64,000 bases of DNA from Candidatus Sulfomarinibacteraceae bacterium (GTDB lineage: Bacteria > Acidobacteriota > Thermoanaerobaculia > Thermoanaerobaculales > Sulfomarinibacteraceae): contig CAWCLO010000004.1 of NCBI GenBank assembly GCA_963796455.1, positions 192,001-256,000 on the forward strand, written 5' to 3'. A program made the translations under genes and the position numbers. The notes under the pieces are model-generated. The model had not been told where the DNA came from. It was given only the letters and a program-made list of their open reading frames with translations, and ran no database searches. Positions 17,842 through 43,593 of the stretch are shown in pieces (positions within the stretch are counted from its first letter, which is position 1; each line of letters starts with the position of its first letter).

Positions 17842-18456
17842 ATGACTCCCGAAAATAGACGCGGACCGCTTTTCCCCGAACGGTTTGTCGACCCGAAGTC
17901 GCGACCCTTCACATCGACGAAATGGAGGGGAAACCTGCCGCACATCTACAAAGAAGGCGGCACATACTTCGTTACATTTTGTCTTTTTGATGCGATGAAC
18001 CGCGGACGAAAAGGGCCAGAACGCTCCGACGATTGGACCGCCGTCGCAGAGAGCCTCGATACGGACCCAAGTATTGGTGCATGCATTCTGAGACGCCCGA
18101 CGATCGCGGGTTTGGTGGAAGGGGCACTCCTTTATTTTCAGGGTGAACGGTATTTGCTGAGCGCCTGGTGTGTGATGCCGAACCATGTCCATTGCGTGGT
18201 AACACCGGCTTCAGATCACGACCTGTCGAATGTTCTTCACTCATGGAAATCGTATACGGGTCATGCGATCAACAAACGGCTCAACCGGGAAGGCGTGGTG
18301 TGGCAGCAGGAGTCGTTCGATCATTTCGTTCGGAACCCGAGTGCCTTTGAACGCTTTGTCGCTTACACCGAAAACAACCCAGTGACCGCCGGGTTGTGTG
18401 ATCGTCCGGAAGATTGGTTGTTCAGCAGCGCAAGGCATCGGGGAAACCCGGGATGA
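17842..18456 (+). mobile_element. REP-associated tyrosine transposase (RAYT, Y1 HUH family)
   Basis: NLPH..TYFVTFCL, VMPNHVH (HUH), SWKSYT, WQQESFDH, YTENNPV, WLFSS; flanked by REP doublets. Confidence 0.92.
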
Positions 18457-25761: not shown

Positions 25762-25922
25762 CACCCTTGTCCAAGACATTGGGGACAGCGACAGGGAACG
25801 GTGGGTAGCGTCAGCGACAGCGTCCAGCGTGCAGGGACAGCGACAGGAGGCAGCGTCAGCGGCAGGGATCAGCGAACAGGGACGGCGACAGGGAACAGCG
25901 ATCAGGAGTCCAGTCGGCGAAG

Positions 25923-26059
25923 TGGCCACCTCCGGGTCGTTCAAAGAAAGGAGTAGCCGGTGGGCGGCCGATGTCAAGGACAGGCAGGGTGCAGGGCATC
26001 CTTGACATCGGCCACCACACCGGCTTGTGGGTATGGGCATGAACGACCCGGAGGTGACC
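25923..26059 (+). promoter_or_regulatory. Long nested leader hairpin covering the RBS of the four-helix-bundle gene
   Basis: CACCTCCGGGTCGTTC pairs with GAACGACCCGGAGGTG; inner AGCCGGTG/CACCGGCT and GGCCGATGTCAAGGA/TCCTTGACATCGGCC stems. Confidence 0.75.
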
Positions 26060-26413
26060 ATGTCCAACGCCGCCACGAACACCAACCTCGTTGCCCACTC
26101 GAAAGCCCTCGAAGCAGCAGGAATCGCGATCAATCTGGTAATGAGAGTTCCCGCTCCACTGAAGTCCATAGCCGATCAGGTGATCCGGTCGGCAAGTTCA
26201 GTCCCTGCGAACCTGGCAGAAGGGCACGGCCGTTTCGGTAGAGACCGGTCGAACCACTGGAGAATCGCCTACGCCTCGGCCAAAGAGGTCGACAGCCACT
26301 TGCAGCTCCTCGCTCACGCCGGGGCGATCAGCCGGAATCGAGCCAGTGAAGCGATGAAGGCCTTCGATGAGGTCCGTGCCATGACATGGCGACTTTTGAA
26401 CCCGACGAAATGA
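26060..26413 (+). CDS. Four-helix-bundle protein (23S rRNA-IVP family)
   Basis: DQVIRSASSVPANLAEG..R..IAYASAKE signature; GGAGGT RBS before the ATG at 26060. Confidence 0.9.
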   Translation: MSNAATNTNLVAHSKALEAAGIAINLVMRVPAPLKSIADQVIRSASSVPANLAEGHGRFGRDRSNHWRIAYASAKEVDSHLQLLAHAGAISRNRASEAMKAFDEVRAMTWRLLNPTK

Positions 26414-27510: not shown

Positions 27511-28272
27511 ATGGCCAACAAGATGCAACCGGATGTTCGCAACCACGCCGCCTGGATCGGGCCTCTGGTCTCGATCGCCGGCGTCTTGAGCTATTTCACC
27601 GTGATGGTCCGTTTCCCCGGTCTGAGGGACAGCGCGATCGTCAATTTGCTGATGGTCGGGATCGGCACGGCCATCGCTGCATGGGCACTGTCGAGGCGCC
27701 GGAACTGGAAGAGTTGGCTCGGTCTCGTGGGTGCCGCGGTGCCAGCGATATTGCTCTTCGCATACGTATTCGGATTCTCCAGTCAGATTCCACCAGCTGG
27801 TCTCGAGGCCTCTGTCGGATCGCCGGCGCCGCCTCTGGAGCTACCCGATCAGGGTGGCCGAATGATCTCGCTGGCGGACTACGCCGGCGAACGGGTGGTG
27901 GTGGTTTTCTTCCGCGGAAATTGGTGACCATTCTGTCGCTCAGAGCTGCAAGGTCTGCAGTCACGTATTCAAGATATCCGTTACGCCGGTGCCGAGGTGA
28001 TCGCGATTTCGGTCGACACCACCGAAGAAAACGCCCGGTTGGCTAAATCACTCGGTCTGGATTTCCCCATCCTCTCCGACGCCGCTGGCGTGGCGATTAC
28101 GACCTGGGGTCTGGTCCACGAGGGGGGCAAACCGGGGGGCGGCGCCATCGCGCGTCCGGCGACCTACCTTGTGGAACCCGACGGTACGATTTCTTGGCGC
28201 AACTTGACCGAAAACTATCGAATCAGGGTGCGGCCGGAACACGTCCTGGATGCGTTGGCCGCAAAAAGTTGA
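27511..28272 (+). CDS. Membrane-bound peroxiredoxin-like (AhpC/TSA) selenoprotein, UxxC
   Basis: FFRGNW-TGA(27925)-PFC continues in frame into AISVD..FPILSD..RPATYLV; SECIS-like hairpin downstream; 3 N-terminal TM helices. Confidence 0.88.
27943..27962 (+). promoter_or_regulatory. Bacterial SECIS element
   Basis: GAGCTGCA-AGGTC-TGCAGTC starts 15 nt after the UGA and closely resembles the fdhF SECIS upper stem-loop (GGUUGCAGGUCUGCACC). Confidence 0.75.
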
Positions 28273-29379: not shown

Positions 29380-29997
29380 GCAACCACCAAGACACCAAGA
29401 CTCGAAGGAGTCACACCAAGAAAACCACAGAGGCCACAGAGACACAGAGAGATCACAGAGGAGAAGTGCAGCCGAGACGGCTGCACCACCATGGTGGTGC
29501 ACGCGTCTCGCGTGCACATTGATGAACCGCGAAGAACGCAAAGAACGCAAAGGCGCAAAGACGCCAAGGCACGGTTGCCGGGATTGTGCGGTGGTGCCAT
29601 CGGTGTCGGCAGATCGACAGACGATCTCCGATCGCCCGTCGCCGGTGAGAAGCGGGGTGCCTCCAATCGCCAGCGCTCGGAGTCACCCCGCTCCCCACCG
29701 CCCGGCACGCCTACGGCATGCCGGATCTGCCTTACATCGGAGACCCCCTCTCTTGATTGAAGGGGAGGGGAGGAAGGAGGCGAGACCTGCGCGGTCGCGC
29801 AGGCCGCTGGGCGGAGGGTTCTTCCAGGATGTCCTCTGCGTCTCTGCGTCTTTGCGTTAAGAACCCGGGAGGTGGACGCCGCTAGGTTGCAGCGGGATCT
29901 GTTGGCCCTGCAATGAGGCTGTCATCTGGGCGAATCCGTTTGATCTGTGGGCAATTTGCGGTGTTTTGCGATGGCCCGGAGCCTCTGTGGTTTTTCC
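29380..29997. repeat. Composite nested repeat, copy 1 (ACACAGAG and CGCAAAG tracts, REP doublet, structured core, inverted closing tracts)
   Basis: 29466-29860 aligns with 31991-32390; AAAACCACAGAGGC pairs with GCCTCTGTGGTTTT. Confidence 0.85.
29608..29731 (-). ncRNA. Candidate four-way-junction structured RNA, copy 1
   Basis: Closing stem GGCAGATC/GATCTGCC with three internal hairpins that pair fully only on the minus strand via G-U. Confidence 0.45.
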
Positions 29998-31673: not shown

Positions 31674-32130
31674 TCGATATCCCGGAGCTGAGAAACTGGA
31701 AGAACGCCCGCAGATCACGCAGAGAGACCCAGATTGATCATCTTTTTCGCTATCGCTATCGCTATCGCTATCGCTATCGCTATCGTCTGGAGACTGACCG
31801 GATTTGCCCACAGATCTCCCAGATGACCCGGATGGCCGGCGTCGCAACCACAAAGACACAAAGACACAAAGCAGTCACACCAAGAAAACCACAGAGGCAC
31901 GGAGACACAGAGAGGGAACACAGAGGGCCTGGCGCAAAGGCCACAGAGCACACAGAAAAACACAGAAGCCATCGCACAGGCACGACCGGAGTGCAGCCGG
32001 GACGGCTGCACCACCATGGTGGTGCACGCGTCTCGCGTGCACATGGTTGAACCGCAAAGAACGCAAAGTCGCAAAGACGCAAAGACGCCAAGGCGCGGTT
32101 GGCGAGATTGTGGGGGGTGCCATAAGTGTC

Positions 32131-32254
32131 GGCAGATCGACAGACGATCTCCGATCGCCCGTCGCCGGTGAGAAGCGGGGCGCCTCCGATCGCCAGCGCT
32201 CGGAGTCACCCCGCTCCCCACCGCCCGGCACGCCTACGGCATGCCGGATCTGCC
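32131..32254 (-). ncRNA. Candidate four-way-junction structured RNA, copy 2
   Basis: Near-identical to 29608-29731; the differences keep or improve the pairing. Confidence 0.45.
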
Positions 32255-32395
32255 TTGTGTCGGTGACACCCTTTCTTGATTGAAGATGAGAGGAGGAAGA
32301 AGGCGAGACCTGCGCGGTCGCGCAGGACCTCGCCGGGCGGAGGATTCTACCGGGACGTCCTCTGCGTCTTTTCGACTTTGCGTCTTTGCGTCACT

Positions 32396-33204
32396 CTTGT
32401 CCAAGACTGCGTCTCAGACAGCGATCAGCGTCAGCGAACAGTAGTCAGCGAACAGGAGTCAGCGTCACGTATGACTGGTATGGAGCCCTGAAATCAAGAC
32501 TCTGGGTTGAGTAAACGCCAGGTCATCGCACGGACTTGATCGAAGGCGTTCATCGCATCAATGGCTCCGTTCGGGCTGATCGCCCCGGCGTGGGCGAGGA
32601 GCTGCAAGTGGCTGTCGACCTCTTTCGCCGAGGCGTAGGCGATTCTCCAGTGATTCGACCGGTCTCTACCGACTCGGCCGTGCCCTTCTGCCAGATTCGC
32701 AGGGACCGAACTTGCCGACCGGATCACCTGATCGGCTATGGATTTCAGCGGAGCCGGAACCCTCATCACGAGCTTGATCGCGATTCCTGCCGCTTCGAGG
32801 GCCTTCGAGTGGGCAACGAGGTTGGTGTTCGTGTCGGCTGAGGACATGGTCACCTCCGGGTCGTTCATGCCCATACCCACAAGCCGGTGAGGCGGCCGAT
32901 GTCAAGGATGCCCTGCACCCTGCTTGTCCTTGACATCGGCCGCCCACCGGCTACCCCTTCCTTGGAACGACCCGGAGGTGGCCACTTCGTCGCCTGTAAT
33001 CCTGACCGCTGCCGCTGCCGCTGCCGCTGATCACTGAACACTGATCGCTGTTACCTGTCGCTGCCCCTGGACTCTGTCGCTGCCGCTGCAATTCGGGATC
33101 GGGAACGGGTAGGGGCCAACCGCGAACCGGATATGCCAAAAACCAACCCGTAAACCACGTGTTGTCAGGTGGGAAGCTTCAGGTGACGATCTGTTTTGGA
33201 CAGC
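32396..33204 (-). mobile_element. IR-bounded element carrying a four-helix-bundle gene (copy B)
   Basis: Left CTTGTCCAAGAC; right CTGCCGCTGCAATTCGGG (to 33097) and degenerate TGTTTTGGACAG (33192); same leader hairpin as copy A. Confidence 0.7.
32494..32847 (-). CDS. Four-helix-bundle protein (23S rRNA-IVP family), close paralog of 26060-26413
   Basis: Same signature and length (117 aa) with few substitutions. Confidence 0.9.
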   Translation of the reverse strand: MSSADTNTNLVAHSKALEAAGIAIKLVMRVPAPLKSIADQVIRSASSVPANLAEGHGRVGRDRSNHWRIAYASAKEVDSHLQLLAHAGAISPNGAIDAMNAFDQVRAMTWRLLNPES

Positions 33205-40860: not shown

Positions 40861-41040
40861 AGGGCAGGGGGGAAAGGGAGGAAAGGGAGAAAGGGAGAAA
40901 GGGAGAAAGGGAGCAGGGGGGAAGGGGAGAAAGGGAGATCGCCAGTCGACCCCATTTCGCTCCTGATCCCGTTCCCGATCCCGGATAAGACGTACATCGC
41001 AGAGGGGCAGAGGGGCAGAGGGGCGAGGGAGGGGCAGAGG
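40861..41040. repeat. Purine-rich GGGAGAAA and CAGAGGGG tracts with a CCCGTT/CCCGAT tract
   Basis: Visible tandem units; reverse-complement tracts occur at 43355-43453. Confidence 0.7.
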
Positions 41041-41189
41041 ATGGCTCGCCATCTTCGCTATCGAACGGTTTTTGTGGATACCGGTATCAAAGGGGTAAAG
41101 GGAGACTGAGGCGGTGCATCTGGTTGTGAGGAATCAGGAATTCCATCGCGCCCTTACTTGACAGTCCTTGAGGCGAATCTACGATTTCG

Positions 41190-41285
41190 CTGCATCCTGC
41201 ATCCTGTCTGCATCCTGCATCCTGCATCCTGCATCCTGCATCCTGCATCCTGCATCCTGCATCCTGCATCCTGCATCCTGCATCC
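41190..41285. repeat. Heptamer tandem repeat (CTGCATC), about 13 copies
   Basis: Counted directly; one 4-bp interruption. Confidence 0.95.
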
Positions 41286-41286
41286 G

Positions 41287-41610
41287 CTACCAGATTTCGG
41301 GTGGGGCCTTGAGCCTCTCGACGGCTTGCCCGCCGAGGAGGTGGTCGTCAAAGATTTCGCGAACATCGGCCGTGGTAACTCCGACGTACATGACGCCGTC
41401 GGGGTAGACGAGCACGCTCGGTCCGAGTTCGCACGGACCGAGGCAACCGCTGCGGGTGATCTTGATCCTGCCGTAGGCCTGCCGCGCCTCCATCAATCGG
41501 CCGAATTCCATCATCAGATCCTGGGCACCGCGTTCACCGCAAGATCCTTTGGGGTTCCCGGGCGGGCGTTCGTTGAGGCAGAGAAACACGTGTTTTTCGG
41601 GTCGGGGCAT
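41287..41610 (-). CDS. Thioredoxin-like [2Fe-2S] ferredoxin
   Basis: HVFLCLNER..SC..SGCLGPCELGP.VLVYPDG. Confidence 0.92.
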   Translation of the reverse strand: MPRPEKHVFLCLNERPPGNPKGSCGERGAQDLMMEFGRLMEARQAYGRIKITRSGCLGPCELGPSVLVYPDGVMYVGVTTADVREIFDDHLLGGQAVERLKAPPEIW

Positions 41611-41703
41611 GACGGAACTCCAGCAATGATGTTCAGTGTCCGCAACGAAACGGAAGATCGAATTGTTCCCTGAGAGGGGCCAAGAGCACAAGGCAATATG
41701 CTA

Positions 41704-41738
41704 AAGCCCATAGCCCATAGCCCATAGCCCATAGCCTA
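41704..41738. repeat. Heptamer repeat (AGCCCAT), 4-5 copies
   Basis: Seen directly. Confidence 0.85.
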
Positions 41739-41762
41739 TTGCCTGTAGGTTGCGATGCCCGC

Positions 41763-42578
41763 CTACCGATCGATCGAGATCAACTCCACGTCGAAGACCA
41801 ACATTCCGGCCGGGGCGCCCGGTTGCCCCTGGTAGGCCAGCTTCTCAGGAATCCAGAAGCGGCGTTTTTCTCCCGCGACCATGAGCTGCACTCCTTCGGT
41901 CCATCCTGCAATCACGCGGTTGAGGGGGAACTGAACGGGCTCGCCGCGGCGCACTGAAGAATCAAATAGTTCACCGTCGGTGGTCCATCCGGAGTAGTGG
42001 GCGGTGACCGTCGATGATGCCGTGGGGTGTTTGTCCCCAACGCCAGGCTGGAGCACCTTGGTGGCCAGGCCGCTGTCGGTGAACTCGGCATCGGCGGGTG
42101 GTGCCGCGACATCGGAGGGCACTGGTGGTGGCGGTGGCGGCTGAGGATTGTCTTTGATACCGAGAAGTTCGACATCGAAGACCAACATGCCCGCCGGCTT
42201 GCCTGGTGCATTGTTGTACGCCAGTTCGACGGGTATCCAAAGGCGGCGTTTTTCGCCCACCAGCATCAACTGGAGGCCCTCGGTCCATCCCGGAATGACC
42301 CTGTTGAGCGGAAAGGTCGCCGGTTGACCGCGGCGGACCGAAGAATCAAAGAGCTGACCATCGGTGGTCCAGCCTGAGTAGTGCACGGTGACTTCGTCCC
42401 ATGCATCGGGGTGTTTGTCACCGGTTCCGGCAGCGAGTACTTTGGAGCACAGTTTGCTTTCGGTGCATTCGGCGTCGGCGGGCGGCGCCGCAACGTCGGT
42501 CGGTGTCTGAAGGTCCTGGGCCTTGATGGAAAGCGTGCAAAAAACGGCGGCAACAACAAAATATGCTATCAACTTCAT
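41763..42578 (-). CDS. Exported tandem two-domain FKBP-type PPIase
   Basis: Two HYSGW..FDSS..VI.GWTEG..LVFDVEL domains with a Pro-rich linker. Confidence 0.95.
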   Translation of the reverse strand: MKLIAYFVVAAVFCTLSIKAQDLQTPTDVAAPPADAECTESKLCSKVLAAGTGDKHPDAWDEVTVHYSGWTTDGQLFDSSVRRGQPATFPLNRVIPGWTEGLQLMLVGEKRRLWIPVELAYNNAPGKPAGMLVFDVELLGIKDNPQPPPPPPVPSDVAAPPADAEFTDSGLATKVLQPGVGDKHPTASSTVTAHYSGWTTDGELFDSSVRRGEPVQFPLNRVIAGWTEGVQLMVAGEKRRFWIPEKLAYQGQPGAPAGMLVFDVELISIDR

Positions 42579-42652
42579 GGCGTTACCCTAACCCGACGCC
42601 ACGGATACGGCAAGGGACAACCGGTCTGCTCGCACCGGGCGTGTCGGGGCAA

Positions 42653-42835
42653 AGAGGAGCAGAGGAGCAGAGGAGCAGAGGAGCAGAGGAGCAGAGGAGC
42701 AGAGGAGCAGAGGAGCAGAGGAGCAGAGGAGCAGAGGAGCAGAGGAGCAGAGGAGCAGAGGAGCAGAGGAGCAGAGGAGCAGAGGAGCAGAGGAGCAGAG
42801 GAGCAGAGGAGCAGAGGAGCAGAGGAGCAGAGGAG
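42653..42835. repeat. Perfect octamer tandem repeat (AGAGGAGC), 22 copies plus a partial unit
   Basis: Counted directly. Confidence 0.97.
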
Positions 42836-42868
42836 ACCCGGCCCTTATCACGAACGACGTCTCCGGTA

Positions 42869-43430
42869 CGGTTCTCCCTTTCTCTTTTTCGGGAACTGGA
42901 ACGGGAACGGAACAATCCTTCAAGATGTCATCCTGAGCGAAGCGCCTTCGGCGCGCAGTCGAAGGATCTGCGGTCGCATGGTCCTATCGGTCGTCCCATA
43001 GATCCTTCGACTACGCCCCCGGCGGGGCTCCGCTCAGGATGACATCGGAGGAAACATCGCCATCAGGCGACAGTGCCGGTGGTTTCCCTCTGCCCCTCCG
43101 CCCCTCTGCTCCTCTGCGCTGTGGGGTGCGGTTCTCCCTTTCTCTTTTTCGGGAACGGGAACGGGAACGGAACAATCCTTCAAGATGTCATCCTGAGCGA
43201 AGCGCCTTCGGCGCGCAGTCGAAGGATCTGCGGTCGCATGGTCCTATCGGTCCGTGCCATAGATCCTTCGACTACGCCCCCGGGCGGGGCTCCGCTCAGG
43301 ATGACATCGGGAGGAGACATCGCCATGCAGGGCAGATCAGTGCCGGGTGGTTTCCCCTCTGCCCCTCCGCCCCTCTGCTCCTCTGCGCTGTGGGGTGCGG
43401 TTCTCCCTTTCCCCTTTCCCCCTTTCGGGA
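42869..43430. repeat. Tandem ~260-bp duplication, each unit holding a ~123-bp palindromic element
   Basis: GATGTCATCCTGAGCG...AGTCGAAGGATCT / AGATCCTTCGACT...CGCTCAGGATGACATC at 42924-43046 and 43184-43308; a third unit starts at 43398. Confidence 0.9.
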
Positions 43431-43593
43431 ACGGGAACGGAAACGGGATCGGGCATCCAGCATCCAGCATCGAGCATCGAGCATCGAGCATCGGGTTGCT
43501 GGCGATCTCCCGAACGAATTCTGAGATCAACAACCCGAGTCGGAATCAGCCTGCTACAGTTGAGGGGAATGGAACCCAGGCGAGGAGAACGCT

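Follow-up and report, generated by a model that had tools for sequence, protein, structure and literature searches.

Inverted doublets of four-way-junction arms in Sulfomarinibacteraceae: probable gene-less cores of GxxExxY nuclease cassettes that act as folded single-stranded DNA

REPINs with their RAYT transposases and Ssn nucleases with their NTS/SRM repeats are the described systems that come closest to the element analysed here. As portrayed in PMC3116915 and PMC3733652, a REPIN is an inverted, structured doublet with a spacer that is intergenic, present in tens of copies, expanded in a species-specific manner and presumed to depend on an enzyme acting in trans; its REP units are hairpins with stems of 5–13 bp tagged by GTAG/CGTC (PMC3733652). 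According to the account in PMC11893778, Ssn is a small single-domain GIY-YIG nuclease whose gene is flanked by directional structured repeats, hairpins of 20–50 nt that in many copies also occur without the gene; strand-specific cleavage of single-stranded DNA (ssDNA) has been shown for it, and it was through the link between gene and repeats that a new class of such nucleases came to light. IS200/IS605 elements, as well as derivatives of them that are non-autonomous, possess subterminal ssDNA structures, and their HUH enzymes target the lagging strand (PMC6006769). The PF13366/GxxExxY family is described in PMC3424549 as one of unknown function with many transfers; a literature search under GxxExxY and PDDEXK_3 returned papers on other subjects.

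The doublets described here work like the REPIN–RAYT and Ssn–NTS systems but differ from both in the structure of the unit and in the enzyme family. They were analysed in a 5.02-Mb Candidatus Sulfomarinibacteraceae genome (G000; other genomes are labelled G0xx and examined loci Lxxx), and each consists of an arm A, a spacer of about 50 nt and an inverted arm B. All the general REPIN traits listed above recur; however, the units are four-way junctions of 118–127 nt rather than hairpins, inspection of the arm ends found no GTAG/CGTC tag, the gene that can lie between the arms encodes a PD-(D/E)XK nuclease rather than a Y1 HUH transposase, and the copies do not flank a Y1 gene, the nearest of six Y1_Tnp matches (G000 only) lying 11 kb away. 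With Ssn–NTS they share the combination of a gene for a small single-domain nuclease with flanking repeats that are structured and directional and are also found without the gene, dispersed repeats on both sides of the nuclease gene being confined here to one clade (G054, G055, G057, G086, L243 and L244). The components are different: GxxExxY, four-way junctions and short tandem repeats in place of GIY-YIG and hairpins, and GxxExxY is a predicted nuclease, whereas Ssn cleavage is experimental. Coupling to the lagging-strand template, as described for IS200/IS605 (PMC6006769), would give the same orientation bias as that reported below. No HUH transposase is linked to the doublets, however, and their two arms fold on opposite strands. 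The ends of IS608, by comparison, fold on one strand. Each arm mimics a four-way junction, and GxxExxY belongs to the same superfamily, and is of the same size, as the PD-(D/E)XK Holliday-junction resolvase Hjc, but the predicted GxxExxY fold is no closer to Hjc than to Cas4 or restriction enzymes. Unlike classical MITEs, the copies show no detectable target-site duplication (2 of 34 versus 2.7 in shuffles, in a test made rough by ragged outer ends), and unlike integron attC sites they do not lie between co-oriented single-gene cassettes: 17 of the 34 copies in G000 are located between convergent genes, 4 between divergent genes and 13 between genes in tandem.

Two copies are present in the window, the whole 64,000-nt stretch of DNA that was analysed. 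In copy 1, arm B occupies 29608–29731 on the minus strand, its P1 (7–8 bp), P2 (9–10 bp), long P3 with a conserved tip and P4 (about 11 bp) being defined by folding and covariation, and it scores 101 bits against the covariance model R1. A 47-nt spacer (29732–29778) separates it from a remnant of arm A on the plus strand (29779–29811); comparison with complete A arms identifies the 5′ half of P1, the hairpin P2 (29786–29803) and the start of P3, the remainder being deleted. The sequence-only reading had correctly noticed this hairpin but had taken it for a separate feature, when it is P2 of the deleted inverted arm. Short, inward-facing repeats of the type found in GxxExxY cassettes flank the doublet, with a left block at 29385–29568 (minus strand), which includes a passenger REP doublet at 29466–29517, and a mirrored right block at 29834–29991 (plus strand). 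Copy 2 has the same organisation: arm B at 32131–32254 (minus strand; recognised by its fold, its identity to copy 1 and its match to R1), a spacer at 32255–32301, an arm A remnant at 32302–32334 (plus strand) that has kept P1 and P2 and lost P3 and P4 between two 4-nt direct repeats, a left repeat block at 31717–32092 (minus strand) with a passenger REP doublet at 31991–32042, and a right block at 32360–32390 (plus strand). Their flanks, which had been thought to drift away from a conserved core, are homologous as well, and the composites of about 550 nt align with a mean column identity of 87%.

The passenger REP doublet rides beside arm B inside the G000 composite, was not seen in the flanks shown for relatives, and belongs to a REP family that also flanks a Y1 transposase gene. 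A RAYT-type Y1 gene with its own REPs on its sides lies in the window at about 18157–18318 (G000:C4:210157; L025). A RAYT was considered as the mover of the doublets and rejected for G000, where all six Y1 matches are 11 kb or more from the closest copy and the nearest Y1 gene has REPs of its own. The window has further features of independent interest. An AhpC/TSA redoxin gene at 27511–28272 (plus strand) contains an in-frame TGA, and read-through would yield one protein of 253 residues with a UxxC motif, a probable selenoprotein. Two inverted copies (91% identical) of a cassette at 25896–26403 and 32504–33011 carry a gene for a four-helix-bundle protein (23S rRNA IVP, TIGR02436) with microsatellite-like flanks, and the intergenic stretch 40864–43493 contains long, perfect 7-/8-mer tandem repeats and short duplications.

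Folded as RNA, the minus strand of either copy of arm B forms a four-way junction in which nearly every base is paired, at −94.8 (copy 1) and −96.5 kcal/mol (copy 2), with z scores of −9.9 and −9.6 and none of 200 shuffled sequences folding as well. The plus strand folds more weakly (−68.9 and −70.6 kcal/mol), and so it does with DNA parameters (−51.5 and −53.0 for the minus versus −37.9 and −38.8 for the plus strand). Arms A and B share one four-way geometry (P1 of 7 bp; P2 of 9–10 bp; P3 of 20 bp, a 2 × 2 internal loop, 6 bp and a four-base tip loop; P4 of 10–11 bp) and the same tip motif. The internal loop reads GA/GA in most B arms (40 of 48) and in about half of the A arms (17 of 33); in arm B of G000, ordinary pairs replace it. 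Among 48 B arms, filtered to less than 93% identity, 92% of cells are paired and two-sided changes occur at 34 of 54 pairs; the corresponding values for 33 A arms are 94% and 31 of 52. In both arms covariation exceeds that of all 500 shuffles and all slid controls, comparisons that are not to be read as probabilities, the sequences being kin and chosen with patterns written by the analyst. The cells that depart from canonical pairing are G–T rather than A–C by 152:18 in arm B and 97:34 in arm A, and strand-biased mutation cannot yield both excesses because the two arms lie on opposite strands. These results support selection on the arm structure as a single strand. Much of the sequence-only reading is borne out: the four stems are present at both sites, the cores are 98.4% identical, the G–U pairing is strand-specific, and a molecule selected in its single-stranded form agrees with the covariation.

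The element had been regarded as a mere duplication; a BLAST search with its core, however, finds 34 places in G000. All are intergenic, and the earlier impression that no convincing ORF is present holds good, since the hexamer-trained gene caller puts no gene over any of the copies, even though mechanical ORFs overlap the element. Arm A lies about 47 nt upstream of arm B on the opposite strand and is complete in 21 of the 34 copies; in both window copies it is internally deleted. Among the outward-facing arm pairs in the loci examined, 58 of 60 have a spacer shorter than 120 nt. Covariance models detect arm B in 43 and arm A in 37 of 77 genomes of the family; every one of the 24 other genus members has arm B, as do 11 of 12 genomes of a sister genus, and the number of its matches per genome ranges from 1 to over 40, genus genomes that are 96–97% complete with only 1–2 matches among them. 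A phylum-wide sample of 150 other genomes gave one borderline match (E 8.6e-4), and none turned up in the others that were searched. In viral contigs the P4 pattern had no match, the tip had one unstructured chance match, and the protein had no relative.

Two candidate matches were discounted, one in L231 (a junction-like fold without the tip motif) and one in L319, where an inverted duplication lies within a coding region. The latter, at L319:2080–2660 on a metagenome contig, where the coding region is secY-like, is probably an assembly artefact. G067 (L149, L153, L157, L160, L164 and L167) and G092 (L146, L151, L156, L166, L171 and L173) have a related four-way junction that shares the tip; upstream of it, the place of arm A is taken by a long, conserved hairpin on the same strand. 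The whole unit is a structured repeat of about 460 nt, for which two loci tested gave no Rfam match. A multi-hairpin segment of about 370 nt, likewise without an Rfam match, lies within a doublet spacer (L112:2079–2450) and recurs upstream of the arm in L015. There is also a hot spot (G000:C4:783–793 kb, L328, L330, L333, L337, L353 and L355) at which, in seven genomes, doublets or single arms occupy two to five successive intergenic gaps, every arm in the same orientation, among genes taken, from their sequences, for imuA-imuB-dnaE2 (SOS mutagenesis) and blaI/blaR-like genes.

Every doublet lies within an array, 0.5–1.3 kb in length, of short tandem repeats. The two-sided arrays in G000 are inward-facing without exception (37 of 37), and the doublet is central between the repeat blocks in 29 of 34 copies; in the other five, strict patterns find repeats on one side only, and no copy breaks the order. 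Across nine genomes, an outward repeat is found no more than 300 nt away from all 137 arms, with none reversed, versus 171 of 1999 intergenic midpoints, a contrast that is partly circular because the repeat patterns were derived from these same arrays. The same short repeats bound GxxExxY genes in G000 and across the family. G000 has two intact GxxExxY genes and a broken one, bounded by repeats and none with arms. The innermost repeat type beside the doublet varies between genomes. As a separate matter, GxxExxY cassettes with differing repeat types are found in one and the same gap, between genes read as M20 peptidase and carbamoyltransferase (L134, L177, L178, L180, L183, L185, L186, L191, L192, L194–L196, L200 and L202); here the repeat type tracks the protein clade, which suggests either replacement at one site or co-evolution of protein and repeat.

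The copies are gained and lost at shared sites and are homogenised within genomes. Forty-three sites of relatives could be mapped to adjacent G000 genes, 24 of them occupied and 19 empty in G000; 17 further arms were unmappable. At shared sites the arm of the relative is 0.52–0.73 identical to the G000 copy, no closer than to other G000 copies, and 0.74–0.88 identical to its own paralogues; 33 of the 34 G000 arms fall into one clade. The gene upstream of copy 1 has orthologues in relatives, behind which there is no arm (0 of 17) and no repeat array either (0 of 16, 3 of these with less than 400 nt of flank), which implies that the whole composite arrived at the copy 1 site in the G000 lineage. 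Four sequencing runs gave, at this site, only fragments of related strains and repeats, with no piece spanning it.

The orientation of the doublets follows replication. In G000, to judge by GC skew and dnaA, the origin lies on contig C10 and the terminus on C4. Of the 34 copies, 31 have arm B folding on the strand with the lagging-strand sequence (p 8e-7); other repeat families of the same genome are without replichore bias (RAYT-type REPs 72:83, a CGTC-type repeat 93:117). Pooled over eight relatives, the same polarity holds for 50 of 53 B arms and for 31 of 33 regions. These regions stem from 40 stretches of 11–20 kb around strong matches, of which seven were dropped for a skew below 0.015 (six fit, one does not), and the 20-kb skew calls the replichore correctly in 221 of 223 control windows; orthologous or shared sites are not independent observations in such counts. 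Transcription does not explain the polarity, because only 54% of genes are on the leading strand and because, at tandem sites, the transcript bears the B fold eight times and the A fold five times. G082 has seven arms that fit and four that do not. In the intact cassettes described below, the upstream, more B-like arm is on the leading-strand sequence, contrary to the polarity rule, in an observation from short contigs and one operon.

The connection to a protein comes from sister genera. G054, G055, G057 and G086 each have a GxxExxY gene between two arms, which in turn lie between repeat blocks; like those of a doublet, the two arms fold on opposite strands. The metagenome loci L243 and L244 (the L244 protein is identical to that of L182) are likewise intact cassettes with both arms; in a second G057 copy and one G060 copy, the gene between the arms is internally deleted. 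Both arms were found in 5 of the 72 family GxxExxY loci examined (among 99 matches listed) and in 2 of the 80 best of 513 metagenome loci. The arm-bracketed proteins fall into a single clade (100/98), and their genes into a single operon region, so that the layout may reflect a single capture event. The cassette arms score 25–54 bits against R1, a range that overlaps the 43 bits of the unrelated L319 duplication, and the link therefore rests on tip motif and geometry: with a 12-nt tip profile built from genus arms, six of the arm-bracketed loci rank first among 151 GxxExxY loci, at 20.5–20.7 of a possible 20.7 bits, the best unrelated locus reaching 15.6. There are no short repeats between arm and gene in the intact cassettes. 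Genus GxxExxY loci examined have repeats and no arms, and arm-bearing intact copies came to light in sister genera only. Two long-spaced arm pairs were considered as autonomous copies within the genus and rejected, as they contained other repeats, and pairs around a dinB-like and an imuA-like gene were set aside as neighbouring independent elements; no other gene family was found between arms. Arms co-occur with GxxExxY genes (35 of 43 genomes, versus 14 of 34), a comparison among non-independent kin that is not used as support, and G017, 95% complete, has 27 arm matches and no PF13366 hit.

The cassette protein belongs to TIGR04256/PF13366 and has conserved E, D, ExK and Q residues. Its structural model (pLDDT 95.8) has a generic PD-(D/E)XK likeness only: comparison with Cas4 gives a Z of 7.8 (rmsd 3.8, 99 residues aligned) and with Hjc a Z of 6.7 (rmsd 3.2, 86 aligned), no Z reached 8, no relative by sequence turned up among solved structures, and Foldseek gave no match at an E of 0.001.

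The reading that we favour, at a probability of roughly 0.6, is that the doublets are non-autonomous, gene-less cores of GxxExxY cassettes that act as folded ssDNA. It builds on the anatomy of the doublet, on covariation with a G–T strand bias, on the central position within the repeats, the arm–gene–arm layout, gain and loss, homogenisation and replication polarity. Several results weigh against it: no intact arm-bracketed gene turned up in the window's genus, the GxxExxY genes of G000 are without arms, G017 has arm matches but no PF13366 hit, the innermost repeat type varies between genomes, and the polarity rule is contradicted by the intact cassettes and by part of the G082 arms. Some of the evidence would also suit an independent, REPIN-like ssDNA element that homes into the centres of GxxExxY arrays and once captured a gene between its arms, with a mover (HUH, GIY-YIG or host) not found here. 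The innermost repeat type differs by genome, the arm-bracketed genes are one clade, related junctions in G009, G084, G067 and G092 have no repeats in the 200–260 nt shown, and the lagging strand is what IS200/IS605 HUH enzymes target (PMC6006769). A gene cassette landing between the arms should, however, have brought its short repeats into the spacer, and none are there; no family besides GxxExxY has been found in that position, and the Y1 matches are not only distant but, at the nearest, have a REP of their own, in a Y1-linked REP family without replichore bias. We consider an independent element unlikely, if a serious contender. The same facts bear on the earlier suggestion of ssDNA for an HUH enzyme: ssDNA is the better alternative to RNA, but the linked enzyme family is PD-(D/E)XK and the six Y1 matches are all at least 11 kb from any copy.

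That the arms act as RNA, either as a 3′-end stabiliser or terminator-like structure on read-through transcripts or as a small structured RNA or ribozyme, and were spread passively by gene conversion, we regard as improbable. An inverted doublet would give either strand one well-folded junction, the asymmetry is of the G–U type with covariation, and 17 of 34 copies lie between convergent genes, versus 614 of 4032 gene pairs. The loops can be read both ways. Three-base side loops prevail in most arms, GNRA and UNCG loops being few, and c(GNA)g triloops are found in G000 arms at P2 (29 of 34) and P4 (25 of 34), those at P2 being mostly a G000 trait (7 of 48 across the alignment). The c(GNA)g type is described in PMC13037366 as a DNA mini-hairpin motif with much less stable RNA counterparts. 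Of the 48 B arms, 40 have tandem GA pairs and 43 a tip loop of the form C(U/C)NG. Both motifs are stable in RNA too. Against an RNA stand the orientation, which tracks replication and not transcripts, the near absence of conserved unpaired bases for a catalytic core, and a copy number that varies from 1 to over 40 within the genus. No Rfam family, moreover, was matched in the window at the gathering score, ten loci gave two chance miRNA hits (E 0.2 and 0.55), and there is no T-run terminator at the arms, the surroundings showing no promoter-like site and one terminator-like site. The earlier proposal of a stand-alone ncRNA is not favoured, the element being half of an inverted doublet, present in tens of copies, oriented by replichore rather than by transcript and nested in GxxExxY cassette repeats. 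The strong polarity, together with the reuse of sites across species, notably around the cluster read as imuA-imuB-dnaE2, might also be expected of a domesticated polar chromosome signal (in replication restart, segregation or repair) that is kept by the host and for which the nuclease link is historical; near-complete genus genomes with 1–2 matches, sites gained and lost and the frequent deletion of arm A make such a role very hard to credit.

If the doublets are indeed gene-less cassette cores, each arm would fold whenever its strand is exposed as ssDNA; for arm A, that strand would be the lagging-strand template. A protein of the GxxExxY family, encoded elsewhere in the genome, would then bind the repeats, the junction or both and nick in trans, and host repair would copy the 0.5–1.3-kb composite, either to a fresh intergenic position or on top of an existing copy. 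The commoner loss of arm A would fit a hairpin on the lagging-strand template. A bolder and rather speculative version is a mobile system that runs on a 125-residue PD-(D/E)XK nuclease alone: the ends, opened by the fork, would be intramolecular Holliday-junction mimics that GxxExxY resolves, and host recombination would spread and homogenise the gene-less copies, whose orientation relative to the fork would stay fixed. Literature searches, mostly of non-subscription literature, found no paper on this element, its four-way arms or their replichore orientation.

The doublets are defined, covarying candidate substrates and form a natural series in which intact, deleted and gene-less copies follow one another, so that a single biochemical test can address what the GxxExxY family cuts; the replication polarity hints at when the reaction occurs. 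As a practical caution, a 'novel ncRNA' candidate from an uncultured bacterium may, for all its strong covariation, be a structured DNA repeat. If the bolder version of the mechanism is true, the large, uncharacterised GxxExxY family would gain a substrate, namely cruciform and four-way ssDNA.
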